From: an uncultured Chitinophagaceae bacterium
GTDB lineage: Bacteria > Planctomycetota > Planctomycetia > Pirellulales > UBA1268
Direction: 5' to 3'
DNA length: 64,000 nt
NCBI GenBank assembly: GCA_964600785.1
Contig: CAZRKH010000082.1
Coordinates: 8,858-72,857, forward strand
Shown here piece by piece: positions 578-59,469 of this stretch (within the stretch, counting starts at the first letter, position 1; every line of letters begins with the position of its first letter). The notes below the pieces were generated by a model that saw nothing but the letters and a program-made list of their open reading frames with translations, did not search any database and had not been told where the DNA came from. The position numbers and the translations under genes are program-made.

Positions 578-686
578 GGCCAGCGGATGTCGCCTCATCG
601 TTTGCTCATTCGATCGGCCGGCTCCGAGGGTGTATTCTTGACTTCGGCAGGTGGGTGGTGTCGTTGCCGTGCCCCTGTCCGGCCCC

Positions 687-1760
687 ATGACGATTCATGA
701 TGAGGTTCCAGCCGTGCCATCGCCGACCCAACCACGTTCTGGCTCCCCCCGTGGCGTGTCGCAGGCCCCTGCCGACCCGCGCAAAACTCGCAATGGCGAT
801 GAGCAAGACCTGGGGCTGATGGATGGCTTCCGCAAGCGTTTCGCCGCCTTTGCCGGCGACCTCAGGCAGTCGGACGAACTGTTCTCCTGGATCACGATCG
901 CGGGCTTTACCGTGGCACTGATCTACAGCTATTGGCCGGGCCTGCTGAATGCCGCCTCGAGCTGGAACGATCCGCAGTATTCGCACGGCTGGATCGTGCC
1001 GCTGTTCACACTGGTCGTGCTCTTCTGGTGGCGGAAGCCGATCCAGCAGCCGGTGCCGATGTGGCAGCGGTTCGCCGGCCTGGGGCTGTTGCTGGCGAGC
1101 TTTGCGTTGCGGCTGGGAGTCGCCCAATACCGGATCGTGACGATCGACATGTACACCTTCGTGCCGGCTTTGGCCGGCGTGTTCCTGATGGTCGGCGGCC
1201 TGAGCATGATGCGATGGGCCTGGGCACCGATCGCCTTTTTGATCTTCATGTACCCGCTGCCCGACGAGGCGACCCGCTACCTGCTCGGCCCGCTGCAGAC
1301 GCTGGCCACGATCGTGAGCACCTACGCCCTGCAGACCCTCGGTCTCGACGCCTATCGCGAGGGCAACCAGATCGTGATCGGGGAGATGCACCTCGGCGTG
1401 GTCGATGCCTGCAGCGGCCTGCGGATGCTCACGATTTTTATCGCGCTTTCAGTGGCCCTGGTGATGCTCGGCCACAGCGAGTGGTGGGAAAATGCGGTGA
1501 TCATTGCCAGCGCCATTCCGATCGCGCTGTTGGTCAACTCGATCCGGATCACCGTCACGGGCCTGCTCTACCAGATCTCCAACTCCGAACTCGCCGAGAT
1601 GGTGTTCCACGATCTCGCGGGCTGGATCATGATGCCGATGGCCCTGGGACTGCTGTTTCTCGAGCAGCAGATTCTCGCCCACATTTTCATCGACGACGAC
1701 ATGGCGCCGGTCACCGTCGGGGCCGGGGGCGGGGCGGCGGCCATGGCCCGGCGGAGATGA
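687..1760 (+). CDS. Exosortase (EpsH/exosortase-archaeosortase family)
   Basis: YSHGW, catalytic CSGLR, NSIRI and FHD motifs; multiple TM helices; start uncertain (651/687). Confidence 0.9.
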   Translation: MTIHDEVPAVPSPTQPRSGSPRGVSQAPADPRKTRNGDEQDLGLMDGFRKRFAAFAGDLRQSDELFSWITIAGFTVALIYSYWPGLLNAASSWNDPQYSHGWIVPLFTLVVLFWWRKPIQQPVPMWQRFAGLGLLLASFALRLGVAQYRIVTIDMYTFVPALAGVFLMVGGLSMMRWAWAPIAFLIFMYPLPDEATRYLLGPLQTLATIVSTYALQTLGLDAYREGNQIVIGEMHLGVVDACSGLRMLTIFIALSVALVMLGHSEWWENAVIIASAIPIALLVNSIRITVTGLLYQISNSELAEMVFHDLAGWIMMPMALGLLFLEQQILAHIFIDDDMAPVTVGAGGGAAAMARRR

Positions 1761-2068: not shown

Positions 2069-4309
2069 ATGAGCGACTACGACGCCGCCACGGACGTTCG
2101 GCAGCCCCAGATAACTCCCGGTGCGTCGGTGGGTGGGCTGGTGGTCCGCGATCCGGCGAGCCTCGCCCCGATGCCGATCCAGCCTCAGGGCATGCCTTTC
2201 CCCGGCGGCGAGGATCCGCTTGGCGGCGGCATCGACTATCGCCGGGTGTTGCATGCCCTGCGGAGGACCTGGCTGCCTGCCCTCCTGCTGGGGGCTGTGC
2301 TCGGGTCGATGGCCGCAGTGGCGACCTGGATCTTCCTGCCTCGTGGCTACGAGGCGGTGGCCTGGCTGCGGGTCGGTGACAGGGCCGGCATGCTTTCGAC
2401 CGCGGGCCGCGACAACGCCGAATATGAGTCCTACCGCAAGACGCAGGTGCAGCTGATCGAAAGCCCCTTCGTGGTCATGTCGGCGCTGCGGAAACCGGGC
2501 ATCGCCTCACTGGACGCCCTCCGAGAAGAGGAAGATCCCGCCGGCTGGATCGAAAACGCCCTACAGGTCACCGCCCCGATGGAGTCGCAGGTGATTCAGG
2601 TGCGGCTCACCGCCGAGAAGCCGGAGGATGCGGCGATGCTCGTGAATGCGGTCACCGAGGCCTACCTCGATGACATTGTCGATAAAGACCGCCAGGATCG
2701 CCTCGCCCGCCGTTCGGTGCTGGAGAAGAAATACAAGGAAAACATGACGGAGATCCGCAAGCGGCGGGAGACCTTCAACAATCTCGCCCGCCAGCTTGGC
2801 ACCGTCGACAGCACCGAGGTGGCGACCCAGCGGAGCCTGCTGCTTGACCATCTCGGCTCCCTGCGGGCCCGCATGACGCGGTGGCAGCAGGAACTCTCCG
2901 AGATCGATGCCGAACTGGCGGTCATGGAGGCCCGTGAGCGTGGCGATATCACGGAGGACGAGAGCATCCCGGAGGAAATGGTGCAGGCGACGATTGCCCG
3001 CGACCCGCAGATGCTCGACATGCAGCAGCAGATCTCGGGGCTCGACCAGACGATCGCCTACCAGGCCCACATCAGCGCCCGCGGCGAGAACGATCCGGCC
3101 GTCAAGCGGCTGCGGCGGCAGCGGGATGAACTGGTGGAACGGATGGATCTTCGCCGAGCCGAACTGCGGCCGCAGATCGTGGCCCAGATGACGCTCGACA
3201 CCACCGGTCGCGGCGGTTCGCAGAAGTTCGAGAGCCCCGCGGTCCTGCAGATGCGTCGGCGGATGATCGCCACGAGCCTCGAGGGGACGTCGGAGGAGTT
3301 TGACAAGGTGGCTCGCGAGGTGGCTTTGCTCGGCCAGGCCAACGCCGATCTCGAGGCCCGCCGCAGCGAAATCGAGCAGCTCCAGATGGTCACCGAAAAG
3401 ATCGGTACCCAGCTGGAGAGCACGTCGATCGATCTCTCGATGCCCAATCGGGTGACGCTCATCGAGCAGGCGGGGGTTCCCGAGGGCAGCGACCGGACGT
3501 TTCGCATGATGCTCTCGGCCGCGGCCGGCCTCGGCGGGCTGGGCCTCGGTGTCGGCCTGATCGTGCTGATCGACTATTTGCGGAATCGGCTGAGCACGCC
3601 CGACGAGGTGCCGCAGCGGATCGGCGTGCGGGTGCTCGGCACGCTGCCGAGGGTCGGCAGGTCCCGCCGCCGGCAGGAGGGGCTTCTGGCGGAGTGCATC
3701 GACAGCATCCGCACGCTCGTCGTGCAAAGCGGCAGAGAGAGCCCCTCGGTGATCCTGGTGACCAGTGCCGTCGAGCAGGAAGGGAAGACCACAGTAGCCT
3801 CGCAACTGGCGGCAAGCCTCGCCCGCTCCGACAAGCGGACGCTTTTGCTCGACGGCGATCTGCGGCATCCCAACGTCCACCTGGCCCTGGGAATCGAGCT
3901 GGGCGTGGGCCTTTCCGAACTGCTCCGTGGGGAGATGACGATCGACGAGGCGATCCAGCCGACCAATGTCGAGGGCCTCTACGCGGTCACCGCCGGAGAG
4001 TGTGACTATGCCGCGGTGACGGCCCTCTCCCGGCCCGAACTGCCGACGCTCGTGAAGGGCTTTCGGGAGTCGTTCGACCATGTCGTGATCGATGCCGGCC
4101 CGGTGCTGGCCTTCGCCGATGCCCTGCTGTTCGGCCAGCAGAGTGATTTCGCCATCGTCACAGCCCTGCGGGATGTGAGCCGGGTGCCCAATGTGACCGC
4201 CGCGATCGACCGGCTGCGGTCGGTGGGTGTTCGCGTGCTCGGCACGGTCGTCAACGGCGTGGTCGATTCCCGTCCGCGGAGGCTCTACCTTTCGCCCCTG
4301 CCGAACTGA
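2069..4309 (+). CDS. Polysaccharide co-polymerase / tyrosine autokinase (Wzc/GumC-like)
   Basis: N-terminal TM, long coiled coil, second TM, then VTSAVEQEGKT Walker A, DGDLRHP and VIDAGP motifs. Confidence 0.9.
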   Translation: MSDYDAATDVRQPQITPGASVGGLVVRDPASLAPMPIQPQGMPFPGGEDPLGGGIDYRRVLHALRRTWLPALLLGAVLGSMAAVATWIFLPRGYEAVAWLRVGDRAGMLSTAGRDNAEYESYRKTQVQLIESPFVVMSALRKPGIASLDALREEEDPAGWIENALQVTAPMESQVIQVRLTAEKPEDAAMLVNAVTEAYLDDIVDKDRQDRLARRSVLEKKYKENMTEIRKRRETFNNLARQLGTVDSTEVATQRSLLLDHLGSLRARMTRWQQELSEIDAELAVMEARERGDITEDESIPEEMVQATIARDPQMLDMQQQISGLDQTIAYQAHISARGENDPAVKRLRRQRDELVERMDLRRAELRPQIVAQMTLDTTGRGGSQKFESPAVLQMRRRMIATSLEGTSEEFDKVAREVALLGQANADLEARRSEIEQLQMVTEKIGTQLESTSIDLSMPNRVTLIEQAGVPEGSDRTFRMMLSAAAGLGGLGLGVGLIVLIDYLRNRLSTPDEVPQRIGVRVLGTLPRVGRSRRRQEGLLAECIDSIRTLVVQSGRESPSVILVTSAVEQEGKTTVASQLAASLARSDKRTLLLDGDLRHPNVHLALGIELGVGLSELLRGEMTIDEAIQPTNVEGLYAVTAGECDYAAVTALSRPELPTLVKGFRESFDHVVIDAGPVLAFADALLFGQQSDFAIVTALRDVSRVPNVTAAIDRLRSVGVRVLGTVVNGVVDSRPRRLYLSPLPN

Positions 4310-30859: not shown

Positions 30860-30935
30860 TGGCAGGGGCGGCGGGAATCGAACTCGCAACCTCTGGTTTT
30901 GGAGACCAGCGCTCTGCCAATTGAGCTACGCCCCT
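30860..30935 (-). tRNA. tRNA-Trp (CCA)
   Basis: AGGGGCGTAGCTCAATTGG...CTCCAAA...GTTCGATTCCCGCCGCCCCTGCCA; CCA end encoded. Confidence 0.97.
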
Positions 30936-30955
30936 AGTGATTCCACTCTCCGATT

Positions 30956-32155
30956 CTACTCGATGATCTTGGTGACCACGCCGGAGCCGACCGTGCGGCC
31001 GCCCTCACGAATCGCAAAACGGACGCCGTCGTCCATGGCGATGGGCACCATCAACTCCACCTCCATCTTCACGTTGTCACCAGGCGAGACCATTTCCACG
31101 CCGCCGAGCAGCTTCGTCGTTCCGGTCACGTCGGTGGTCCGGAAGTAGAACTGCGGCCGGTAGCCGGCGAAGAAGGGCGTGTGGCGGCCCCCCTCCTCCT
31201 TGGCGAGCACGTAGACCTCGCACTCAAACTTCTTGTGGGGCTTGATCGAGCCCGGCTTGGCGAGAACCTGCCCGCGTTCGATCTCGTCGCGGGCCACACC
31301 GCGGAGCAGACAGCCCACGTTGTCGCCGGCCTGACCCGACTCGAGGATCTTCTTGAACATCTCGACGCCGGTGACGGTCGTCTTCTCGATCTTGTCGGAC
31401 AGGCCGATGATCTCGACCTCGTCACCGACCTTCACCACACCCCGCTCGATACGCCCGGTGGCCACGGTGCCGCGGCCCTCGATCGAGAAAACGTCTTCGA
31501 TCGCCATCAGGAAGGGCTTGTCGATCTCGCGGGCCGGCTCGGGGATGTAGCTGTCGATCGCGTCGAGCAGCTCGCCGATGCACTTGCTCGCCTCCGGATC
31601 GGCAGGGCTGTCGTAGGCCGGCTTGCCCGCCCCCCGAATGATCGGAATGTCGTCGCCCGGGAAGCCATACTTGGTGAGCAGTTCGCGGATTTCCATCTCG
31701 ACGAGGTCGAGCAGCTCTTCGTCGTCGACAAGGTCGACCTTGTTGAGGAAGACGACCAGAGCCGGAACGCCCACCTGCCGGGCGAGCAGGATGTGCTCCC
31801 GCGTCTGCGGCATCGGGCCGTCGGTGGCGCTGACCACCAGGATCGCCCCGTCCATCTGGGCGGCGCCGGTGATCATGTTCTTGATGAAGTCGGCGTGGCC
31901 GGGGCAGTCGATGTGGGCGTAGTGCCGCTTGTCGGTCTCGTATTCCACGTGACTGACCGCGATCGTCACCGTCTTCGTGTCGTCGCGGACCGTGCCACCC
32001 TTGGCGATGTCGGCGTAGCTCTTGGCCACGGCGAGGTCCTTGGCGGCCTGCACGGCCACCAGGGCGCCTGTGAGCGTGGTCTTCCCGTGGTCGATGTGGC
32101 CGATCGTGCCGACATTGACGTGGGGCTTGGTCCTCTCAAACGTATCCTTTGCCAT
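30956..32155 (-). CDS. tuf: Elongation factor Tu
   Basis: [39 protein letters not shown]. Confidence 0.99.
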
Positions 32156-32323
32156 GCTTTTTCCTCGGTTCTCTTCGCAGGGATTGCAGGACTTCGCCTG
32201 CTTCGGGTTTCGATCAACGGTCGTGACAGTCCGCCGGCGGAAACGCTCCGCCGGCTGTTCGGTTGGTTGTCTGGTCGGCCGCCTGGCGGCGGGTGCGGTT
32301 GGTTGTCGTGCCGGCCGCCGGAG

Positions 32324-32396
<73 letters not shown>

Positions 32397-32542
32397 AGCC
32401 GGGCGCACGGGACGGCCTCGGGTGTGGTTTGTGTGGTGTGTAGTGTCGTCGATTGTCTCGTCGTGTGTCTGCGTCGGTTGCGGAATTGCTCGTGTGTGCG
32501 GCTGGCGGTGAGGGGGGTGAGGAGGCAAGAGCGGCAGTCGAC

Positions 32543-32613
32543 AGCGGGTGAAGGGAATCGAACCCTCGTCTTTAGCTTGGAAGGCTATTGCTCTACCATT
32601 GAGCTACACCCGC
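32543..32613 (-). tRNA. tRNA-Gly (TCC)
   Basis: GCGGGTGTAGCTCAATGGTAGAGC...CTTCCAA...GTTCGATTCCCTTCACCCGCT. Confidence 0.97.
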
Positions 32614-32680
32614 GGTGGGTCGCCAACTCCGGCTCTCACAGCCCCGCCGCCTGCGGCCGGTGCTTCGCGGGGGCCGAGAG

Positions 32681-32763
32681 TGGGGAGTGCAGGATTCGAA
32701 CCTGCGAAGGCAGAAGCCATCAGATTTACAGTCTGACCCCTTTGACCGCTCGGGAAACTCCCC
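32681..32763 (-). tRNA. tRNA-Tyr (GTA)
   Basis: GGGGAGTTTCCCGAGCGGTCAAAGGG...CTGTAAA...long variable arm...GTTCGAATCCTGCACTCCCCA. Confidence 0.97.
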
Positions 32764-32961
32764 TGTTCGGATGTAGTGCCCTGCCGGACGCCCGGCATGA
32801 CGGGTATTCAGTTTGCTCACTCCGGAGCCGGGCCGGCTCCATCAAGATCGAATCCGCCGTCCTCCCGGAAATGACCACGACACGAGCCCGTTGGTTTGTA
32901 CGAAAATCCGGACGCTGTCGCGCCACCGCCGGCAGTGGGCAGCGGGAAGGCCTGACGAGTG

Positions 32962-33034
32962 AGCTAGCGGCGGGATTTGAACCCGCAACCTGCTGATTAC
33001 AAATCAGCTGCTCTGCCAGTTGAGCTACGCTAGC
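32962..33034 (-). tRNA. tRNA-Thr (TGT)
   Basis: GCTAGCGTAGCTCAACTGGCAGAGC...TTTGTAA...GTTCAAATCCCGCCGCTAGCT. Confidence 0.97.
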
Positions 33035-33136: not shown

Positions 33137-34354
33137 TCAGCGGAAGCTGACCTCCACCATCGAGAAGTCGTCGCTGAAGTCATCGCGTGCCGAGAGTTCG
33201 CGAATGTGGCCAAGGAGCCGGTCCATTCGGTTTTCCTGCGAGTTTTCCTGGGGTTTTTCCCGGTTCTCGAGCGGCCCGGCGAGGGTCGCCACAAACTCGT
33301 CGAAGGTCCACATTGAGCCGTCGGGGCGGCTCACCTCGAAGGCCCCGTCGCTATAGATAAAGAGCTTTGCCCCGGGGGGCACCACCACCTCCGCCGCCTC
33401 GAACTCGAGCCCCTCGACCGCCCCGATCAGGGGGCCGTCCGAGGTCAGCAGCTCAGGCTCGGCCCCATCGCCGGCGAGGAACACCGCCGGAGGATGGCCG
33501 CCTCCGGACCAGCGGAGCGTTCGGCTGGGGGCATCGTAAACCCCATACCAGATCGTGAAGAACATGTCGTTTTGCCGCTCCATCGGGAAGGCCCGATTGA
33601 GTGCTTCGAGCACCCCGCCGGGGTCGTGGAAGTCGGTCTGGGGCAGGGCCTCGCTCCGCAGGGCATTGAAAGCCGACACGCTCAACAGCGCCGCCCGCAC
33701 GCCGTGGCCGCAGACATCGAGCAGATAGAAGGCGGTGCGGTGCTCGTCGAGGGCGTGGTAGCCGAAGATGTCGCCGCCGAGTTCCGCCGATGGGATGAAT
33801 CGCCAGTCGGCGGTTGCCCCGCCGAGCGTCTGCGGCGGTGGCAGCAGCGATTGCACGTAGTTCGCCGCCGAAGCGAGGTCATCGGCGAGCGTCCGCTGGC
33901 TGGCCTGGAGGGCCTCGAAGGCCGCGTTTCGCTCGACGAGGGCCACATACCCACGGGAGTGGTAGCGGATGCGGGCGATCAGTTCCAGCGGGTCGGGCAG
34001 CTTCACGATGTAGTCGTTGGCCCCCAGGGCAAAGGCCTCGGCCTTGACCGTCGGCTCTTCCCGGGCCGAGAGCACGATGATCGGCACGTCCTGCAGCCGC
34101 TCGTTGGCCCGAAACTCGCGAACCAGATCAAGTCCATCGACGTCCGGCATCACAAGGTCTTGCAGGATCACCGTCGGCCCCAACGCCTCGGCGGCCTCCA
34201 GGGCGGCCTTGGCGTCGTCGCAGAAGTGGAATTCGATCCCCTCCTCCGCGGCCACCATGCGGCGGACCGCCTCACCGATGATCCGCTGGTCATCGACGAG
34301 CAGCACGCGGGCTCGGTCGAGCGATGTTGGTGAGGCGGAGGAGGTGGATGGCAT
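33137..34354 (-). CDS. Response regulator receiver fused to a PP2C/SpoIIE phosphatase
   Basis: VLLVDD, LQDLVMP, DYIVK; LGGD, DVCGHG, YSDG, SDD. Confidence 0.92.
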   Translation of the reverse strand: MPSTSSASPTSLDRARVLLVDDQRIIGEAVRRMVAAEEGIEFHFCDDAKAALEAAEALGPTVILQDLVMPDVDGLDLVREFRANERLQDVPIIVLSAREEPTVKAEAFALGANDYIVKLPDPLELIARIRYHSRGYVALVERNAAFEALQASQRTLADDLASAANYVQSLLPPPQTLGGATADWRFIPSAELGGDIFGYHALDEHRTAFYLLDVCGHGVRAALLSVSAFNALRSEALPQTDFHDPGGVLEALNRAFPMERQNDMFFTIWYGVYDAPSRTLRWSGGGHPPAVFLAGDGAEPELLTSDGPLIGAVEGLEFEAAEVVVPPGAKLFIYSDGAFEVSRPDGSMWTFDEFVATLAGPLENREKPQENSQENRMDRLLGHIRELSARDDFSDDFSMVEVSFR

Positions 34355-34449: not shown

Positions 34450-34902
34450 CTACCGCGGCAGGCTTCGCTTCGGGCGGCAGGCGGGCTCGGCCGCCAGCGA
34501 AAACACGATCACCTCCTCACCGGTGACGGTCGAGATGTCGTGGTGCACGCTGACAAGCGAAACGCCGGCCGCCTCACGCACGATGCACTCCAGGCGGAAG
34601 CGTCCGATGGCCACCATGTGGCTGCGAACCTGCTTGAGCAGGGCGCGGCCGTTGGTCTCGTCGCCGGCGTGACCATTGCCGTTGTGGCTCGGGTCGGCCG
34701 GTGCGTCTGCCGCGTTGGCGGGCCGTGCATGCGGGACAAGCAGCTGTCGTTCGGCGGCCGAGAGGGCGCCTTGGAGCCGCACGACCAGCAGCGTGCCGAG
34801 CAAATGGGAACGGATGTCCTGGGGGCCGCGACCGATAAATTCCTGATGGAACTTCGAGATGCCGTCGCAGACCGCCGCCTCGATCTCACCTTGGGATTTC
34901 AT
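34450..34902 (-). CDS. DUF2294 (MpsC-like) family protein
   Basis: SQGEIEAA..GRGPQDIR..LSAAERQL..GRALLKQVR..HHDISTVTGEEVIVFSL. Confidence 0.88.
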   Translation of the reverse strand: MKSQGEIEAAVCDGISKFHQEFIGRGPQDIRSHLLGTLLVVRLQGALSAAERQLLVPHARPANAADAPADPSHNGNGHAGDETNGRALLKQVRSHMVAIGRFRLECIVREAAGVSLVSVHHDISTVTGEEVIVFSLAAEPACRPKRSLPR

Positions 34903-34970
34903 GCACCACCTTCGGAAAGTGTTCCTGGGGCTTGCGGGGGAGAGCTTGGGAAGGGAAGCAGATTCGGCAG

Positions 34971-35002
34971 ATGCCGCCGGGGCCCGATGGCCCCGGCGGC
35001 AT
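34971..35002. other. Perfect 14-bp-stem hairpin between csrA and DUF2294
   Basis: ATGCCGCCGGGGCC-CGAT-GGCCCCGGCGGCAT; no U-tract. Confidence 0.8.
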
Positions 35003-35030
35003 GCAAGCAGTCGTCCACATCTGCCTCGAC

Positions 35031-35264
35031 TCAGCGTCGCAGTACGCCGCCGGTCGCAGCCTTCCGCGGCTCGGGAGCCGGCTGGCCGTTGCGGATGCGA
35101 TCCCACACCTCGCGGCGATGGATCGGCATCTTGTTGTCCGCCTCGAAGCCGAGCCGCACGCGGCCGCCTTCGATTTCCAGGATCGTGATCTCGAGCACGA
35201 CCTCGAGGTCTTCGGCGCGGCCGATGACCACGCTCTCTCGGTTCTTCCGGGTCAGCACCAGCAT
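35031..35264 (-). CDS. csrA: Carbon storage regulator CsrA/RsmA
   Basis: MLVLTRK..ESVVIG...VRLGFEA...IHRREV. Confidence 0.93.
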   Translation of the reverse strand: MLVLTRKNRESVVIGRAEDLEVVLEITILEIEGGRVRLGFEADNKMPIHRREVWDRIRNGQPAPEPRKAATGGVLRR

Positions 35265-35310: not shown

Positions 35311-35817
35311 TCAGCTGCTTGCGGCACCGGTGCCGCCCGCTCCTTGGACACGCACGCCCTCGGCATGCATGTGTGCATCGACCGGCACACCGAGCAGCGG
35401 CAGGCCCCTGCCGAGCAGGAACAGCTCCACCGTCGGTGCGGTCGTGAATGTTTTGAGCACGCTGTGGGTCGTGCCATCGACATGGGCGATGCCGCCGCGG
35501 AGTTCCACGCCCGCTGAATCGCGGAGATGGCTGCGAAAGGCATCGAAGGAATTCTCGAAGAGATAGCGGTGAAAATCCTCGATCTTGCCGAGGCCGCCAT
35601 CGGTATCGGCGAGGTCTGCTTCGAGTGGTGAAAATCGCTCGTGCAGGGTGACCACCAGGGAGGACCCGCTGGCCACGACCGTCACGCTCACCGGCGACCG
35701 TCCGGTGAGCAGGTGTTCGAATGTTCCCGCGGCCTGCGCGACACATCGGGCAATCCGTTGATTCATCGGGTTGCGGTCGGCAGGTTTTCGGCCGGCCTTT
35801 TCGGTTCTCGGTGGCAT
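35311..35817 (-). CDS. Divergent DUF2294-like protein
   Basis: TGRSPVSVTVV..LVVTLH..SPLEADLA..IEDFHRYLF pattern; start 35817 or 35766 (the ORF-track start lies inside the terminator). Confidence 0.7.
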   Translation of the reverse strand: MPPRTEKAGRKPADRNPMNQRIARCVAQAAGTFEHLLTGRSPVSVTVVASGSSLVVTLHERFSPLEADLADTDGGLGKIEDFHRYLFENSFDAFRSHLRDSAGVELRGGIAHVDGTTHSVLKTFTTAPTVELFLLGRGLPLLGVPVDAHMHAEGVRVQGAGGTGAASS

Positions 35818-36002: not shown

Positions 36003-36336
36003 CGTTCCGTGTCGCTTTGAGTCAGCCGACCGCAGCAAGGCGGTTGTCATCAGCAACGCGACGGCGGCGATAATAACCCGGAAAGATGGGCAACGCAAGC
36101 AGGCGGGGGAGCCTGCGTGGATTGTGCGGTTTGCTGCTGAAGGCCGTGGTTGCGGATGCGGGCCGGACAGTTGTGCAAAGTCGGCGTGACCTGCGCAGGC
36201 GGAACTCCGAGCCGTTCGGTCAAGGCGACCGGCTCGCCAACCCGAAGCAAATCGCCAGAGGCAACACCCCCCACATAGAGGGGTTTCTACAACGAGGCGT
36301 GTCGTGCCGGCCGTTCTCAACAGCAGGAGCCCACCC

Positions 36337-36771
36337 ATGCCACGCAGCCAGGAGCCGACGCCTCCCGCGGAGAATGGCCGCCACCGCAGCCAGGGCGAGA
36401 TCGAGGCCGCAATCTGCGACGTCGTCTCCCGCTTCCAGCAGGAATACATGGGCCGCGGACCAAGGGATGTCCGCACCCATCTCGTCGACAACAGGCTCTT
36501 TGTCCACATGCAGGGGGTGCTCACCGCCGCCGAGCAGCGACTGATGGACTCGCATGCCAACGGCAACGGCCGGGGGGCGGAAATCCTCAAGGCTTTTCGC
36601 AGCCATCTTGTCGCCGCGGGCCGTCCTTTGCTCGAGAAACTCGTCGAGAGCGTGACGGGTTCCCAGCCGATCAACGTGCACCATGACATCAGCGCCGTGA
36701 CGGGCGAGGAGGTGATCGTGTTCACGCTCTCATCGCCGCCGGCCTGCAGAGACCGGCGGCGTCGGGGCTGA
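36337..36771 (+). CDS. DUF2294 (MpsC-like) family protein
   Basis: SQGEIEAAICD..YMGRGPRDVR..LTAAEQRL..HHDISAVTGEEVIVFTL; AGGAG RBS; paralog of 34450-34902. Confidence 0.88.
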   Translation: MPRSQEPTPPAENGRHRSQGEIEAAICDVVSRFQQEYMGRGPRDVRTHLVDNRLFVHMQGVLTAAEQRLMDSHANGNGRGAEILKAFRSHLVAAGRPLLEKLVESVTGSQPINVHHDISAVTGEEVIVFTLSSPPACRDRRRRG

Positions 36772-37041
36772 GGCCCGCAGGTTCTTGTGAACGATCCCAA
36801 TCGGAAGCCGATGGCGTTCGGCTTCTCTGGCCGGCGGCGGCGTCCGGGGGTGGTTGCGGCACTCTCGGTCCCGTCGCCGGCCCTCTTTGTCGCTCCCGGT
36901 TTGCCCGCGACAATCGGTGAAACCACGGTCCTCGTCCGTGGCCGGGAATCGCCGGTTGCAACCCTGGCCGCCGCGTCGTTGAATCGATGGCGATCCGCCG
37001 TGAACAACGCGGCCGTCCTTCGCCCCCCGGACGCTCCTCCC

Positions 37042-39506
37042 GTGTCGCAGCCTGCCGCCCCGCCGCCGGCCACACCCGTCGACTTCGAGGGGCTCGGGGT
37101 GTTTTACATGGGTGAGCGGGTCGATCCTGACTCGGGTCGTGGCCTCGCCGAGCCGGTGCTCCTCAAGGCCAAGCGGCTGTGCACCCATGCGGTCTGCGTG
37201 GGCATGACCGGCAGCGGCAAGACGGGCCTCCTGGTGGGCCTGCTCGAGGAGGCCGCCCTCGACGGCATCCCCGCGGTGGTGATCGACCCCAAGGGCGACC
37301 TCGGCAGTCTGCTGCTCTCCTTTCCCGACCTCGCCCCGGAAAGCTTCCGGCCATGGGTCGATCCCGATGCGGCTCGCCGCGAAGGACTCTCGGTGGAGGA
37401 GCTCGCCGGGCAGACGGCCGCCCGCTGGAGCGAGGGCCTGGCCGCCTCCGGACAGTCGGCCGAACGCATCGCCCGTCTCCGGCAAAGCGTCGAGATGGCG
37501 ATCTACACCCCCGGCAGCCGGGCCGGCCGACCGCTGGCGATGCTCGGCAGCCTCGACCCGCCGACCGAGGCGGTCCGCAACGACCCGGAGCGGCTCCGCG
37601 AGCGGCTCGACTCGGTGGCTTCGGGCATTCTGGCCCTGGCCGGCATCGACGCCGAACCGGGCCGCAGCCGCGAGCATGTGCTGCTGTGCACCGTGATCGA
37701 CGCACTCTGGAAGACGGGCCGTCCGCTGAGCCTTGGCGAACTGATTCGGGCCCTGCCGGCGCCGCCGGTGGAGCGGGTCGGCTTCTTTGAACTGGAGCAC
37801 TTCTACCCCGCCGCCGACCGGTTCGAATTGGCCGGCCGGCTGAATTTGGTCGCCGCCTCGCCCGGTTTTGAGGCCCGGCTCGAGGGGGAGCCGGCCGACA
37901 TTGGGCGGCTGCTGTGGACCCCCGCGGGCCGGCCGCGGGTGAGTATTGTCTCGATCGCCCATCTCTCCGACGCCGAACGGATGGCGTTTGTCACGCTGCT
38001 CGCCGGTCAGGCCGTCTCCTGGATGCGGTCGCAGCGGGGCACCTCGTCGCTGCGGGCGATCTTCATGATGGACGAGGTCTTCGGCTACCTGCCGCCCTCG
38101 GCCAACCCGCCGAGCAAACTGCCGATGCTGACGCTGCTCAAGCAGGCCCGAGCCTTCGGCCTGGGCGTCGTACTGGCCACGCAGAATCCGGTCGACCTCG
38201 ACTACAAGGGCCTCTCCAACGCCGGCACCTGGTTTCTGGGCCGGCTGCAGACCGCGCGAGACAAGGCCCGCGTGGTCGACGGGCTCGAAGGGGCCGCGGC
38301 AGCCGCCGGCGACACGCTCGACCGCGGCCGGCTCGACCGGCTGCTCTCGGGACTCGGCAGTCGCACCTTCCTGCTGCACAGCGTGCACGACGATGACGAG
38401 ACCGTCTTCCGCACCCGCTGGACGCTCTCCTACCTGCGGGGACCGCTGGCCCGCGAGGAGATTGCCAGGCTCACCCCCAGGGCCGAGCCGGCTGCCGCAG
38501 CCGAGCCGCCCGCGACGGGCAATGATCGTCCGGCTGGCTCGTCCGGCGGGCCGCGGCCGGTCCTGCCGCCGGGAGTGCGGGAGGTCTTTCTCGCCCCCGC
38601 CGAGCCTCCGATTGGGGCGGTCCTCTACCGCCCTGCCCTCTATGGCCGGGGAAGGATTCGCTTCGCGACCGCCGACGGGGCAGACGGCGGAATCGACATC
38701 AGCCGGCAGTTCGACCTGCTCGCCCCGGCCCCCGAGCAGGCCGCCGACGCCTGGCGGAATGCGGCGGCCCTCGACGAGGGGCCGATGCTGGAGCCTTCCG
38801 CCCGAGAGGGCGACTTCGCTTCGCTGCCTTCGATCCTTGCCGGGCCCAAGGGGCAGGCCTCGCTTGCTACAAGCTTGGCGACGCACCTGGCCCGCACCGG
38901 CCGCCTGCGGCTGTGGAGGTCGGAGCATGCCTCGTCGCTCTCGCGGCCGGGAGAATCCGAAACCGACTATCGCCTGCGGATCGCCCAGGAGGTGCGGGAG
39001 GCCCGCGATGCGGCCATCGAGAAACTACGTGAACGTCATGCGACACAACTCGACCGGCTCGCCGTGAGGATCGACAAGGCCCGGCAGAAGCTCGATCGCG
39101 AACGATCGGCGGCCCGGGGCGGCAGCGTTGCTTCGTGGGTCTCGGTGGGGGTGGCGATTTACGACGTGCTCCGCGGACGTGGTGGCAGCCGCGGGCTCGA
39201 CAAGGTCTCGACCTCGGTGAAGTCGGCCACCAAGGCCTCGCAGCAGCAGGCTGAGGTGACGGCGATGGAGGAGAACATCGACTCGCTCATCGAAGAATCG
39301 GCCCTGCTGCGGGAGGCGATCGAGCGGGAAGTCCGCGGCATCCGCGACGCGATCGATCCCCTCACGATGCCCCTCGAGCCGGTCGAGATCACGCCCCGCA
39401 GTGGCGACGTGGCCGTCGAGGAGGTGGCCATCGCCTGGGTGCCGGATGACCCTGCCGCGGTGATCGCGAGGCTTCGCGAACGCGACACACCGGGCGGACA
39501 GGTCTG

Positions 39507-39507
<1 letters not shown>
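37042..39507 (+). CDS. HerA/FtsK-like ATPase (DUF87/DUF853 type) with a C-terminal coiled coil
   Basis: VGMTGSGKT, VIDPKGD, MDEVFG, LATQNP; start uncertain. Confidence 0.85.
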
Positions 39508-48469: not shown

Positions 48470-49867
48470 ATGGAACGGATTACGGATGGTCGAGAACGGT
48501 GGCGGGCTCAGCGGCGATGGACTCCGCGGATTTTTGTCGATTGCACGCAGTCGCTCGAGTGCCGTGTGCGGCAGGGGATTCCCCGGGTCGTTCGCGAGCT
48601 GGTGCGGCAGGGGCGGCCGGCTGCGCGTCGTCTCGGTGCCGAACTCGTCGCGGTGCGATGGCATGCCGGCAGGTTTTTCCCGGTGGGTCTGCGGGGTGAC
48701 ACGCTGCCGTCGCGATCGTCTCGGGGGGATTGCTCGCTGGGAGAACGGGCGTGCCGGCGGCTTCGTAAGGCCACGCCGCGGAAGCTTCGCCGAATCATGG
48801 GGAAGGCGGTAGAGATCGGGGCGGCGGCGTTGCGACGGGAGATCAGGCCCACGGCCGGTGACATTCTGCTGCTGCCCGACTCCACCTGGGACCGCCCGAT
48901 CTGGGAGGCGGTCGACCGGGCCCGTGACGCCGGTGCGAGCCTGGGGGTGCTCCAGCACGATTTCATCCCGCTAAATCACCCTGAGCTGGTGCCTGAGGAG
49001 ACTGTCGGCCGCTTCGCGACCTGGATGAACGAGTCGCTCTCACGGGCTGATTTTCTGCTCGCGGTGTCGCAGACGATCGCGGAGGAGGCCCGCGCGGAAC
49101 TGCTCAAGCTCGGCCGCGGCCACGTCGCCGCCAAGCGTGTCACCGTCTGCCCCAATGGAGCCGATTTTCACACCTGCTCCCCACGGTCAGGGCTGCGGCC
49201 ACAGGTGCTCGCAGCCCTCGCACGGGGCCGGCCTTTCCTCGTCGTGGGCACGGTCGAGCCGCGGAAAAATCAGGGCCTGCTCGTCGATGCGATCGACCGG
49301 GTGCTCGCCGACTGCCCCGATGCCAGCTTCCTGGTGGTGGGAGCGGTCGGCTGGCGTGGGGAGGAGATCGTACGAAGCATGCGGTCACACGCCGCCTGGG
49401 GCCGGTCGCTTCTGCACCATGACGACTTCAGCGACTACGAACTCGACGCGGCCTACCGGCATGCCAGGGCGGTCGTGGTGCCGTCGCTCGCCGAGGGCTA
49501 CGGGCTGCCTGTCGTGGAGGCGCTTGCCCGCAACACGCCCGTGATTGCCTCTGACCTGCCCGTGCTGCGGGAGGTTGGCGGGAATCGCTGCGACTACTTC
49601 GACCCCCACGACCCGGCAAGCCTCGCGGAGCGGTTGCTCGGCCTCGTTCACCGGCCCCGACCGGTCGCGGCCCCCGATCCGACCGCGGCGATGCCGACCT
49701 GGCGGCGAATGGCCCGCCGAGTCGTGGTGGCCGCCGCGGCGGAGGCGGCTGCGGCGCGGCGTGAGGCGACCGCCCGGAGGAAGGTGTCCGACCGGCCGGA
49801 CCGCGAACAACGCGGGGTTTTCCCGCTGCGGGTGAGCGTGGCTTGCCCCGCGCGTCGCGCCGCGTGA
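48470..49867 (+). CDS. GT4-family glycosyltransferase
   Basis: HDFIP, VGTVEPRKN, PSLAEGYGLPVVEAL. Confidence 0.9.
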   Translation: MERITDGRERWRAQRRWTPRIFVDCTQSLECRVRQGIPRVVRELVRQGRPAARRLGAELVAVRWHAGRFFPVGLRGDTLPSRSSRGDCSLGERACRRLRKATPRKLRRIMGKAVEIGAAALRREIRPTAGDILLLPDSTWDRPIWEAVDRARDAGASLGVLQHDFIPLNHPELVPEETVGRFATWMNESLSRADFLLAVSQTIAEEARAELLKLGRGHVAAKRVTVCPNGADFHTCSPRSGLRPQVLAALARGRPFLVVGTVEPRKNQGLLVDAIDRVLADCPDASFLVVGAVGWRGEEIVRSMRSHAAWGRSLLHHDDFSDYELDAAYRHARAVVVPSLAEGYGLPVVEALARNTPVIASDLPVLREVGGNRCDYFDPHDPASLAERLLGLVHRPRPVAAPDPTAAMPTWRRMARRVVVAAAAEAAAARREATARRKVSDRPDREQRGVFPLRVSVACPARRAA

Positions 49868-49913
49868 ATCTTGGTTGTCACGGGGCGGTCAGCCGGGCGC
49901 GGGCCCGAGCGAC

Positions 49914-50037
49914 GGCTCCGAGATTGTTTCGGAAGACGGATTGTCGGGTCGCCCGCCTGCGGAGCCCCGACACGACGTAGGCCGGCGTGAGACGTTCTCC
50001 CCACTGGGGCGGGCTCTTGCGGCGGCCTTTTTTGTTG
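49914..50037 (+). promoter_or_regulatory. Candidate attenuator/riboswitch leader RNA, copy B
   Basis: CTCC..CGGAAGACG (49930-49938)...CGTAGGCCGGCGTGAG...CGGCCTTTTTTGTTG. Confidence 0.75.
49979..50033 (+). terminator. Intrinsic terminator in the leader of the PEP-CTERM gene
   Basis: AGGCCG/CGGCCT, CGTGAGA/TCTTGCG and CCCC/GGGG stems followed by U6. Confidence 0.8.
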
Positions 50038-50144
50038 CGCGGTTGTCGCGTGGTCCCAGGGCCGGGCCGCGTGGATTGGGCAGGGATCGTCAATGTTCAC
50101 TCATGTTCTCAAAAGCCGTCTGCGGACGGCCCCGGAGGTGTCTC

Positions 50145-50900
50145 ATGAGTTTCAGCGATCTCGTCGATTGTCTCATAAGCCGGCGTCGGCCTGTTGGCCG
50201 CTTCGGCCGAGCCGTGGCTTTTCTCGCCAGCCTGCTCTGCGTCTTGTCATGTGCCTGGCGGGCCGGCCAGGCGATCGCCGCTCCGGTGTTCACCGTCACC
50301 GGCGGCACCACGGTGCTCACGTCGCTGGAAACCTTTCTCTGGGTGACTCCTCGTTTCAACGGGGATGTTCTGCTCTGGGAGCAGGGCGTGATCGGTCTCT
50401 TGGAGCCGGGCAAGGTCTCAATCGAGTATGTCGGGAAGGAAGCCTTCTATGCCGACAACATCTTCCGCTGGGACGGGATTGACATCTTCTCCACCGGTCC
50501 CTCGTCGCCGTTGATCGCAGGCCAGACGGCGGCCACGCCCTTCCCGCCGTTGCCGCTGGCGACCTACGAGGTGCCGGGCGTCGTGCCGGCCGGGCCGCTG
50601 CCGCTGAGCTTCTTCATTTCGGAAACCTCCAAGGCGGTGCCCAATGACGGCAACCCCGACATCGCCTACTGGCCGCTCCCCACCGACATCAGCAGCAATC
50701 CCTACGACCTCGGCTCGGTGGTCTACGTGATGCTCGATGATGCAGACCCGGTCGATACCGACCACGACGACATGATCGTCCAGCTCTCGGTGGTCACGCC
50801 GCCGGTGCCCGAGCCGAGGTCACTTGGCCTGGCCGTGGTGGGAATCCTGCCGCTCGCCGGCTGGATGCTCCACCGACGGCGGGGCCGGCTCAGCGGTTGA
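50145..50900 (+). CDS. PEP-CTERM exosortase-sorted surface protein
   Basis: Signal peptide; C-terminal VPEP + TM + RRRGR; DDADPVDTDHDDMIV acidic motif; start 50103 or 50145. Confidence 0.85.
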   Translation: MSFSDLVDCLISRRRPVGRFGRAVAFLASLLCVLSCAWRAGQAIAAPVFTVTGGTTVLTSLETFLWVTPRFNGDVLLWEQGVIGLLEPGKVSIEYVGKEAFYADNIFRWDGIDIFSTGPSSPLIAGQTAATPFPPLPLATYEVPGVVPAGPLPLSFFISETSKAVPNDGNPDIAYWPLPTDISSNPYDLGSVVYVMLDDADPVDTDHDDMIVQLSVVTPPVPEPRSLGLAVVGILPLAGWMLHRRRGRLSG

Positions 50901-52023
50901 CATGCGCGACCTTCGCCGGCGGGAAGCCGTTGAACCAGGTCGAGCTGGCCGCCGAATAGGCGCCGATATTCTCGCTGTAGAGATAGTCGTCGAGTTGGAG
51001 ATCGGGCAGCGGCTCGGCTAGGCCGATCGTGTCGAGGGCGTCGCAGGTCGGCCCGAACACGGCCGAGGGCTCGGTGGCCCCTCGCTTGAAGCTTTTCACC
51101 GGGTAGTTGCAATGGTCGAAAATCACGCCGGAATAGGTGTGGTAGACGCCGTCGTCGATGTAGTAGCACCGCTTCCCTTCGCGAACCGCTTTCCCGATGA
51201 TCTTCGAGACCGCCGTGCCGGCTGATGCCACGAGGAACCGGCCCGGCTCGGCGAGGATTTCGATCTCCGGCGGAAAGAGCCGGTCGAGCTCGTGATTGAT
51301 CCGCCCGGCCAGCTCCGCAAACTTCGGCACGCTGGCGTCGTAGGCCGCGGGAAAGCCGCCGCCGATGTCGAGCAGCTCGAGTGAAAAGCCGCGCGACTTC
51401 GCCTCGGCGAAGATGCCGGCCGAGAGATGGATCGCCTGGATGAAGTTTTCAGGGTTTGTGCATTGGCTGCCGACGTGAAAGGAAAGCCCCTCCACCGTGA
51501 GCCCCTGCTCGTGGGCGAAGGCGATCAGGTCGACCGCCTCCCCCGGCAGGGCGCCGAACTTGCTCGAGAGTTCGACCATTGACCCGGTGTTGGGCACCCG
51601 CAGCCGCAGGGCAAGGCCGGCATGCGGCGCGTGGCGGGCGATCTTCCGGACCTCCTCCGCGTTGTCGTAGGTGACCAGCGGCTTGTAGCGGTCGAGTTCC
51701 CGGAGGGTCTCCACCGGCTTGATCGGGTTGGCGTAGATGATCTTGTCCCAGATGAAGTCCTGCCGTTGCTTCGCCGGGAGGTGTTCGATGAAACGGTGGA
51801 CGGTGTGGAACTCCTCCATGCTCGCCACATCAAAGCTGCCGCCGAGTTCGTAGAAGGTCTGCACGATCGCTGCGTCGGAGTTGACCTTGACCGCGTAGTA
51901 GGCCTGCACGCGGGGAAAGTGCCGCCGGAAGAGCCGGTAGTTTTTCCGCAGTTCGGCGTGATCGACGACAAACAGCGGCGTGCCGTGTTCGCGGGCGAGG
52001 GCGAGGAGCGTTTTCTTGTTCAT
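50890..52023 (-). CDS. Ornithine decarboxylase (fold-type III PLP enzyme)
   Basis: YAVK, FDVAS, SFHVGSQ, LDIGGGF, EPGRF, GPTCD. Confidence 0.9.
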   Translation of the reverse strand: MNKKTLLALAREHGTPLFVVDHAELRKNYRLFRRHFPRVQAYYAVKVNSDAAIVQTFYELGGSFDVASMEEFHTVHRFIEHLPAKQRQDFIWDKIIYANPIKPVETLRELDRYKPLVTYDNAEEVRKIARHAPHAGLALRLRVPNTGSMVELSSKFGALPGEAVDLIAFAHEQGLTVEGLSFHVGSQCTNPENFIQAIHLSAGIFAEAKSRGFSLELLDIGGGFPAAYDASVPKFAELAGRINHELDRLFPPEIEILAEPGRFLVASAGTAVSKIIGKAVREGKRCYYIDDGVYHTYSGVIFDHCNYPVKSFKRGATEPSAVFGPTCDALDTIGLAEPLPDLQLDDYLYSENIGAYSAASSTWFNGFPPAKVAHVNR

Positions 52024-59394: not shown

Positions 59395-59469
59395 TCGGGG
59401 CGGAGAGATTCGAACTCTCGACCTCCTGGTCCCAAACCAGGCGCGCTAGCCAAACTGCGCCACGCCCCG
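59395..59469 (-). tRNA. tRNA-Pro (TGG)
   Basis: CGGGGCGTGGCGCAGTTTGGCTAGCGCG...TTTGGGA...GTTCGAATCTCTCCGCCCCGA. Confidence 0.97.

Follow-up and report, generated by a model that had tools for sequence, protein, structure and literature searches.

What is the structured segment that lies between a glycosyltransferase gene and the gene of a secreted-type protein in an uncultured planctomycete, and does it control the gene behind it? The segment occupies positions 49930-50033 on the plus strand of a 64,000-nucleotide (nt) stretch of GenBank assembly GCA_964600785.1 (contig CAZRKH010000082.1, positions 8,858 to 72,857; deposited as an uncultured Chitinophagaceae bacterium and placed by GTDB in Planctomycetota, Pirellulales, UBA1268), which we refer to as the window and whose numbering is used throughout. 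Its own genome contains three instances of this structured leader RNA, of which the segment in question is denoted copy B. Comparative modelling suggests that it is a member of a cis-regulatory leader RNA family conserved in Planctomycetota. The family would act by transcription attenuation, most likely with a small ligand as the effector, a reading that we hold tentatively.

Copy B and the parts of the leader RNA

The initial annotation of this locus described the segment as the second copy of a leader RNA present elsewhere in the window. This was borne out by a covariance model of the leader, R1, which in a whole-genome scan matched copy B at 63.2 bits (E = 7e-13) and also matched copy A (E = 7e-16), each in cis to its downstream gene; every sequence string quoted in the annotation was found where it had been placed. 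The parts of copy B are the following.

49930-49932 (+): 5' strand of helix P1a, CGG; its partner is CCG at 49982-49984
49933-49935 (+): 5' side of internal loop 1, AAG (columns 10-12 of alignment A6, see below)
49936-49938 (+): 5' strand of helix P1b, ACG; its partner is CGU at 49976-49978
49930-49938 (+): block CGGAAGACG
49939-49941 (+): 5' side of internal loop 2, GAU (A6 columns 16-18)
49942-49972 (+): P2 hairpin in the minimum-energy fold, with the stem TGTCGGG 49942-49948 / CCCGACA 49966-49972
49973-49984 (+): 3' strand, comprising CGA of loop 2, CGU of P1b, AGG of loop 1 and CCG of P1a
49976-49991 (+): block CGTAGGCCGGCGTGAG
49979-50033 (+): intrinsic terminator with a GC-rich hairpin at 49979-50028, from the minimum-energy fold and a terminator scan
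50028-50033 (+): U-tract TTTTTT, followed by GTTG at 50034-50037

The same anatomy characterizes the family: P1a (CGG/CCG), a purine-rich 3 × 3 internal loop, the 3-bp helix P1b, a second 3 × 3 loop, P2 and an intrinsic terminator. The 5' side of loop 2 in copy B, GAU, departs from the family consensus AGU/AGA. What had been annotated as a 37-nt insert is instead the P2 hairpin, which is present in every member. The minimum-energy fold of 49914-50037 has a free energy of -62 kcal/mol (z = -2.69), and in it the 5' arm of the terminator shares nucleotides with loop 1 and with the P1a 3' strand.

Distribution of the leader in Planctomycetota

An exact two-block pattern was scanned over 61 related genomes, 36 of them from the family of the window and 25 from other families of the order. 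It occurred at 42 places in 19 of the 61 genomes, a reversed control pattern at 5 places; matches were confined to the family of the window (18 of its 36 genomes vs 0 of the 25 from other families). Candidates L008 and L022, which consist of coding-like sequence without a hairpin or U-tract, were dropped before modelling, as was L035 from the genome of the window (C45:510-546), a weak fourth match there (R1 E = 0.035, 37 nt, without P2) that is left out of the copy count. Model R1 was built from 30 distinct aligned sequences (alignment A3) with the nested P1a/P1b/P2 fold obtained from RNAalifold.

With R1, the leader was found in 113 of the 151 genomes of a family-level sample (1-7 matches each, 11 of 12 genera), and none was found in five other genomes of the window's own genus. 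An order-level sample yielded leaders in 49 of 151 genomes from 21 of 30 families, with up to 9 matches per genome, often clustered in front of consecutive genes, and an even sample of the phylum yielded them in 4 of 150 other genomes. An exact-pattern scan of a public species-representative collection with the consensus from outside the family returned at least 120 stretches, and the titles of the metagenome-assembled genomes among these include Pirellulales, Planctomycetaceae, Gemmataceae, Isosphaeraceae, Thermoguttaceae and Phycisphaerae/Tepidisphaeraceae. The leader is widespread in Planctomycetota and is densest in the order of the window. One locus, L101, carries two complete leaders in tandem (3219-3289 and 3348-3416, minus strand), each with its own terminator and with one gene behind them.

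Covariation and conserved nucleotides

For structural counts, 133 R1 matches were aligned to R1 (alignment A6), and all the following values come from this alignment, which was fitted to the model and so favours its structure. Standard base pairs fill 96.3% of the pair cells, compared with 85.4% in shuffled alignments, none of 500 shuffles reaching the observed value; control structures slid by 1-3 columns gave 17-52%. The covariation score was 0.418 vs 0.211 in the shuffles, and again none of 500 reached it. The third pair of P1b (columns 15:87) covaries, being UA in 72 leaders, GC in 54 and CG in 1, and all six modelled P2 pairs and two distal pairs covary with changes on both sides. The pairing of P1a, by contrast with these covarying helices, is suggested by complementarity: its three pairs are CG, GC and GC in 128-133 leaders, the sole departures being five U-G pairs. 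P1a is often 4-6 bp long, with a U-A or U-G extension in 103 leaders and a further one in about half.

The loops are conserved as well. On the 5' side of loop 1, A10 occurs in 129 leaders and G12 in 128, with A, U or C in column 11; on that of loop 2, A16 occurs in 119 and G17 in 98. G85 is kept in 111. On the 3' strand, G88, U89, A91 and C94-C95-G96 are invariant in all 133, and A92 (112) and G93 (109) are nearly so.

Three structural or coding interpretations were rejected. A sarcin-ricin-like AGUA/GAA loop was discarded, as column 87 pairs with column 15 in Watson-Crick fashion by covariation. The consensus from outside the family can be read as a leader peptide, AUG ACU AGA UAA; column 11, however, holds U in 49 and A in 71 of the 133 leaders, so the AUG of such a peptide is not conserved. 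Finally, the initial annotation proposed that an additional hairpin sequesters the 5' block:

49917-49933 (+): upstream hairpin TCCGAGA 49917-49923 / TTTCGGA 49927-49933, in the minimum-energy fold of copy B only

This hairpin does form in that fold, but across the family such pairing is at chance level: of 127 leaders, 72 have a 5' CGG that pairs upstream, compared with an average of 78.4 after shuffling of the 45 nt in front of it, and a conserved upstream anti-antiterminator hairpin was dismissed on these numbers. GGCTCCG (49914-49920) is complementary to CGGAGCC (49960-49966), a pairing that is absent from the minimum-energy fold of copy B.

Overlap of the leader with its terminator

A run of at least four T lies downstream in 127 of the 133 leaders (median run, 7); the other six, which have no U-tract, are all of the 'AGG' subtype found in the window's family and described below. 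When the minimum-energy hairpin ending at the T run is taken as the terminator, 119 of 133 leaders have a 5' arm whose start falls on position 2-5 of AAGCCG; in 118 of these 119, the CGG of the 3' arm, ahead of the U-tract, is the pairing partner of the P1a CCG. The terminator stem also covaries, the first position after CCG being A:U in 61 leaders and G:C in 42. Because the 3' strand of P1a provides the first bases of the terminator 5' arm, P1a and the complete terminator are mutually exclusive. P1a is formed in only 7 of 127 full-length minimum-energy folds (P1b is kept in 64), so that read-through would need a stabilizer of P1. The median distance from the U-tract to the called start codon is 64 nt. 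A search for RNA sequencing runs over 48500-51500 listed none.

These folds suggest the following mechanism. The leader RNA would form one long irregular hairpin consisting of P1a, the first 3 × 3 loop, P1b, the second 3 × 3 loop and P2, and, left alone, it is predicted to terminate transcription. An effector may clamp the conserved loops and P1a; the terminator would then lose the base pairs adjoining the U-tract, and RNA polymerase would read through. The leader would thus be a transcription-attenuation ON switch for the gene behind it. We infer this direction of control and, in the same manner, the nature of the effector considered below.

Genes downstream of the leaders

Counts of downstream genes were obtained in two ways. 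Pfam domains were tallied among 129 heuristically called first open reading frames (ORFs), several of which are wrong-frame calls of DUF2294, so that this tally undercounts the family and frame-free counts are better. In the frame-free search, 59 of 133 leaders are followed, within 400 nt and on their own strand, by the start of a DUF2294/MpsC domain; within 1500 nt, the same-strand counts are 70 for DUF2294/MpsC and 55-56 for CsrA, and neither occurs downstream on the opposite strand. At 55 leaders, DUF2294 is followed by CsrA, and this DUF2294(MpsC)-CsrA operon is the commonest unit behind the leader. Upstream, 58 of the 133 leaders have a DUF2294 gene in divergent orientation, a conserved locus layout that is also that of copy A. 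In one relative, the DUF2294 gene at G069:C20:38858-39287 is matched in two parts whose coordinates overlap, suggestive of a frameshift or of an error in assembly. CsrA paralogues are numerous, with 7 matches in the 2.8-Mb genome of the window and 2-17 matches per genome in all 151 genomes of the order sample.

Among the 129 first ORFs, the Pfam tally gave MpsC in 49; CsrA, CsbD, PEP-CTERM, response regulator and fatty-acid desaturase in 3 each; ice-binding-like, PAS kinase and GT1 in 2 each; and phosphoketolase, AI-2E transporter, MscS and fasciclin in 1 each. The set forms no coherent metabolic pathway.

Within the window's family, two subtypes differ in what they precede. DUF2294 lies behind 36 of 39 leaders of the 'AAG' subtype, which includes copy A, and behind 0 of 16 of the 'AGG' subtype, which includes copies B and C and precedes genes of secreted proteins instead; in three of three relatives tested, these are XDD4-family exosortase-dependent surface proteins. 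'AGG'-type leaders also have a second hairpin, GCGCCGA...UCGGCGC, after the terminator and a CAG(N)GGAUGCCG box that stands some 35-45 nt ahead of the start codon; of 16 such leaders, 8 show the box clearly and 2 in part, copies B and C included (L021, L020, L012, L018, L015, L014 and L007). The genes and the box around copy B are as follows.

48470-49867 (+): glycosyltransferase gene upstream of copy B, with its stop codon 63 nt before the leader
50080-50089 (+): GCAGGGAUCG box in the 5' untranslated region of the downstream gene, seen by eye, a partial match to CAG(N)GGAUGCCG
50145-50900 (+): gene after copy B for a 251-aa secreted-type protein, from translation, with GGAGG at 50134-50138

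We take both forms of the box to resemble the consensus binding site of CsrA. The protein encoded at 50145-50900 had been annotated as a PEP-CTERM surface protein. Its C-terminus does look PEP-CTERM-like by eye, with VPEP, a hydrophobic stretch and RRR, but the protein has no match in Pfam or NCBIfam, the PEP-CTERM model included.

Copies A and C and the genes around copy A are listed next.

35993-35883 (-): copy A leader, R1 74.8 bits, E = 7e-16
35993-35985 (-): block CGGAAGACG of copy A
35940-35932 (-): block CGUAAGCCG of copy A
35893-35887 (-): U-tract of copy A
G000:C118:8700-8761 (-): third copy, copy C, R1 E = 7e-9
35311-35817 (-): DUF2294/MpsC-like gene, first after copy A, PF10057 E = 6e-6, 26.7 bits (cut-off, 23)
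35031-35264 (-): csrA paralogue, second after copy A, PF02599 E = 1.3e-17
34450-35106 (-): second DUF2294/MpsC gene in the operon of copy A, PF10057 E = 1.4e-24; judging from the ORF translation, its true start is probably near 34902
36304-36771 (+): divergent DUF2294/MpsC gene near copy A, PF10057 E = 1e-30
651-1760 (+): exosortase gene, PF09721 (Exosortase_EpsH) E = 2.6e-61

In a pairwise alignment, copies A and B share the common blocks and have a variable middle; CGTAAGCCGGCGTGAG, at 35940-35925 (-) in copy A, has one mismatch relative to copy B. Of the four occurrences of the string TTTTTTGTTG in the 2.83-Mb genome, three are tails of the leader element. Copy C precedes a 1,414-aa ORF with a secreted-protein-like N-terminus. 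After the DUF2294-CsrA-DUF2294 genes, on the same strand, 33137-34354 (-) encodes a receiver domain fused to a PP2C/SpoIIE phosphatase (RsbU-like). The divergent DUF2294 gene is adjoined by 36787-39507 (+), which encodes a 906-aa protein with weak matches to P-loop proteins of the HerA/DUF87/TrwB type.

The initial annotation proposed scanning the genome with a covariance model and listing the genes behind the matches. The scan yielded copy C, and DUF2294-CsrA and surface-protein genes do recur in the list. The annotation had further proposed a regulon that joins the DUF2294/CsrA module to surface proteins handled by an exosortase. One part of this holds, in that the same RNA family precedes both kinds of genes. 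The other part is looser: the exosortase encoded at 651-1760 may be linked to the leader by association, and outside the window's family the gene set is wider, the regulon comprising mainly DUF2294, CsrA and stress-type genes, among them those for CsbD, fatty-acid desaturase, MscS and phosphoketolase, rather than specifically surface proteins.

Candidate effectors

The leader displays several of the properties by which riboswitches are recognized: a structured domain that covaries, a 5' location in the same orientation as the gene, and an expression platform that is exclusive with the sensor helix. We tentatively assign the effector role to a small ligand, which would make the leader an orphan riboswitch class. 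This assignment draws on the near-invariance of the loop nucleotides across the phylum, the heterogeneity of the downstream genes together with up to 9 copies per genome, the tandem of complete leaders in L101, the occurrence of leaders in genomes where even a sensitive profile yields no DUF2294, 4 of the 49 leader-positive ones and two of these 96-99% complete, and the failure to find a CAT_RBD antiterminator in the genome of the window. A signal related to stress or of the second-messenger type would suit the downstream genes and could be the ligand. A fuller proposition, that the leader is a new phylum-wide riboswitch class whose aptamer of about 60 nt senses such a stress or second-messenger signal and turns on the CsrA paralogue and DUF2294 along with stress and surface-protein genes, is somewhat more speculative.

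Several observations weigh against a riboswitch. Single hairpins of low complexity are often protein-binding sites, and the leader RNA is one such hairpin. A regulator (CsrA) and a small protein with no assigned function (DUF2294) are what most often follows the leader, a pattern typical of RNA-binding proteins that control their own synthesis and not of metabolite riboswitches; nor does any set of transporters or enzymes among the downstream genes point to a ligand. The invariance of P1a means that its pairing receives no support from covariation, and, given the six 'AGG' leaders without a U-tract, termination is not the sole platform. Since the genomes that carry leaders are related, they are not independent samples, and every count overstates the strength of the evidence.

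Alternatively, a protein might clamp the same leader. On its own or jointly with the CsrA paralogue, the DUF2294 product of the gene just downstream would hold on to the two purine-rich loops and stabilize P1, and the result would be autoregulated antitermination comparable to that by BglG/LicT. We consider this possibility real if somewhat doubtful. Regulators are commonly encoded behind their own RNA targets, and the gene order fits (DUF2294 at 59 leaders within 400 nt and at 70 within 1500 nt, with CsrA following at 55). So does co-occurrence: DUF2294 was detected in 43 of the 49 leader-positive genomes of the order by PF10057 and in 44 by a more sensitive profile; among leader-negative genomes, 13 of 102 have it. 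A protein clamp would also suit so simple an RNA and its layout, a hairpin with two internal loops 3 bp apart that overlaps a terminator, as in ribonucleic antiterminator (RAT) elements. However, the sensitive profile did not find DUF2294 in G282 (96% complete, two leaders) or G200 (99% complete, one leader), and CsrA would be a poor clamp, as it usually prefers single-stranded GGA over helices. We also know of no RNA-binding activity of DUF2294, which counts against this explanation. A structure model of DUF2294 (predicted local distance difference test score, 83) gave no Foldseek hit in the PDB at E ≤ 0.001, the best being YslB and Bet3/TRAPP at about 0.01; with VIA-align, the best Z-score was 7.2 (FtsK motor domain), followed by TRAPP subunits at 5.5-6.4, a range of common arrangements. 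Searched by sequence against solved structures, DUF2294 gave nothing below E = 0.09.

It is unlikely that the leader is primarily a CsrA target or small RNA, in which a CsrA paralogue would bind the GGA of UCGGA(A/U)GAC when P1a is open and thereby favour termination, or in which the terminated RNA would serve as a CsrA decoy. The 5' GGA is present in 128 of 133 leaders, GGA(U/A)GA fits the 3' half of the CsrA consensus, csrA lies behind 55 leaders, and the 'AGG'-type leaders have the additional CAG(N)GGAUGCCG box before the start codon. The presence of CsrA is itself uninformative, since all 151 genomes of the order sample encode it in 2-17 matches each. Only one GGA is conserved, however, and it lies at the junction of P1a and loop 1; a second GGA, in the 3' half, occurs in 65 of 133 leaders, and per element there is one GGA in 63, two in 52, three or more in 16 and none in 2, whereas CsrA decoys have many GGA sites in loops. 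Moreover, termination is already the predicted default, so that a factor favouring it would add little, and this reading would not explain why the 3' strand, the loops and P2 are conserved.

An effector-free physical sensor, in which a weak P1a with non-canonical loops would need low temperature or a certain ionic strength to be stable and so allow read-through in the cold or under osmotic stress, is very unlikely. Fatty-acid desaturase (3), ice-binding-like (2), MscS (1) and CsbD (3) genes among the 129 ORFs fit cold or osmotic stress, but most downstream genes (DUF2294, CsrA) are uninformative about temperature, and loops that are near-invariant across the phylum exceed the needs of a simple melting element.

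A non-regulatory origin, as a dispersed repeat or, for copy B, as a mere terminator of the glycosyltransferase gene, whose stop codon lies 63 nt upstream on the same strand of an element that does end in a good terminator, is highly improbable, if less firmly so for copy B taken by itself: DUF2294 is downstream on the same strand 70 times and on the opposite strand never, which refutes the orientation-free repeat that the initial annotation had allowed for and identifies a cis element; the same downstream gene families recur across many families of the order; compensatory changes fall in the part outside the terminator; copy A has a divergent neighbour and no same-strand gene upstream; and the conserved aptamer-like part and the association with downstream genes argue against a role confined to terminating the glycosyltransferase transcript.

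Implications for gene regulation in Planctomycetota

To our knowledge, gene regulation in Planctomycetota is almost unexplored. The leader is frequent, most genomes of the window's family carrying it and some genomes having as many as 9 copies, and its anatomy is clearly that of a switch. It would mark a regulon in which genes for stress and the cell surface are joined with a CsrA paralogue and the uncharacterized DUF2294/MpsC family. It offers an experimental handle on the role of DUF2294, on the 2-17 CsrA matches per genome and on the signal behind a surface and stress programme. If the leader is indeed a riboswitch class, a small-molecule signal would be coupled directly to a post-transcriptional master regulator. 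A defined ON switch could also be useful as a tool for inducible expression in planctomycetes, which are hard to engineer.

Comparison with known RNA families and regulatory systems

Rfam 15 (4227 models) at gathering thresholds identified only six tRNAs in the whole window, a cluster of five at 30863-33034 (-) and one more at 59395-59469 (-). For the region 49700-50300, three chance-level matches were obtained at E up to 10; for four homologous loci, E up to 1 yielded only an unrelated Acido-Lenti-1 RNA in L069. The latter (RF01687; L069:2840-2884, plus strand), from a related genome, scores 39.6 bits against a gathering threshold of 37, and a leader copy lies some 1.3 kb upstream of it.

Full-text literature searches found no described RNA family or paper on the leader motif, with 'Rhodopirellula-1' compared by its table entry alone, and nothing relevant on DUF2294, MpsC or CsrA paralogues in Planctomycetes. 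The table of Weinberg et al. 2010 (PMC2864571) lists the 'Rhodopirellula-1' RNA with '?' for RNA, 'y' for cis-regulatory, '?' for switch and no Rfam number, and gives Proteobacteria and Planctomycetes as its taxa. Set side by side by this entry alone, the leader and 'Rhodopirellula-1' might be the same motif: according to the entry, the latter is probably cis-regulatory, occurs in Planctomycetes and stands outside Rfam, which would explain the blank Rfam result, but its taxa also include Proteobacteria (PMC2864571). Text searches in two genome surveys from the Breaker laboratory showed nothing related, the nearest item being the yjbJ motif, a weak riboswitch candidate reported only from Streptococcus with 40 representatives (PMC11109978). 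The yjbJ motif resembles the leader in having hairpins and a terminator before a CsbD-like stress gene, and its authors leave open whether a ligand or a protein acts on it (PMC11109978).

Among protein-dependent systems, no match to the antiterminator domain CAT_RBD (PF03123) was found in the genome of the window, which is 92% complete, while the control search matched in 4 of 14 known genomes. The RAT elements of the BglG-SacY-LicT system share with the leader a two-loop hairpin that overlaps a terminator, a clamp for read-through and an operon with a regulator behind; the leader differs in that it has no phosphotransferase-system context and in that the candidate protein, DUF2294, is unrelated. 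The ANTAR domain (PF03861) gave 0 matches in the genome of the window, the control likewise giving 0 in 14 genomes, and the leader, with one long hairpin, is unlike ANTAR targets, which have two hexaloop hairpins. Leaders controlled by CsrA and the CsrB/RsmZ decoys resemble it in the GGA(U/A)G element and, through csrA, in the operon that is controlled. Unlike CsrB/RsmZ, with GGA in hairpin loops, the leader has one conserved GGA in a helix-loop junction, and CsrA does not explain its other conservation.

Known ON riboswitches, such as c-di-GMP-I/GEMM, fluoride and ZTP, have a conserved 5' fold whose closing helix shares nucleotides with the 5' arm of the terminator, and they occur in several copies per genome before heterogeneous genes that include those of surface and signalling proteins, all of which also applies to the leader. 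It differs from these three in being one hairpin with no junction or pseudoknot detected and in having no match in Rfam. In view of these likenesses and differences, and allowing for possible identity with 'Rhodopirellula-1', we class the leader as a terminator/antiterminator leader and a candidate orphan riboswitch.

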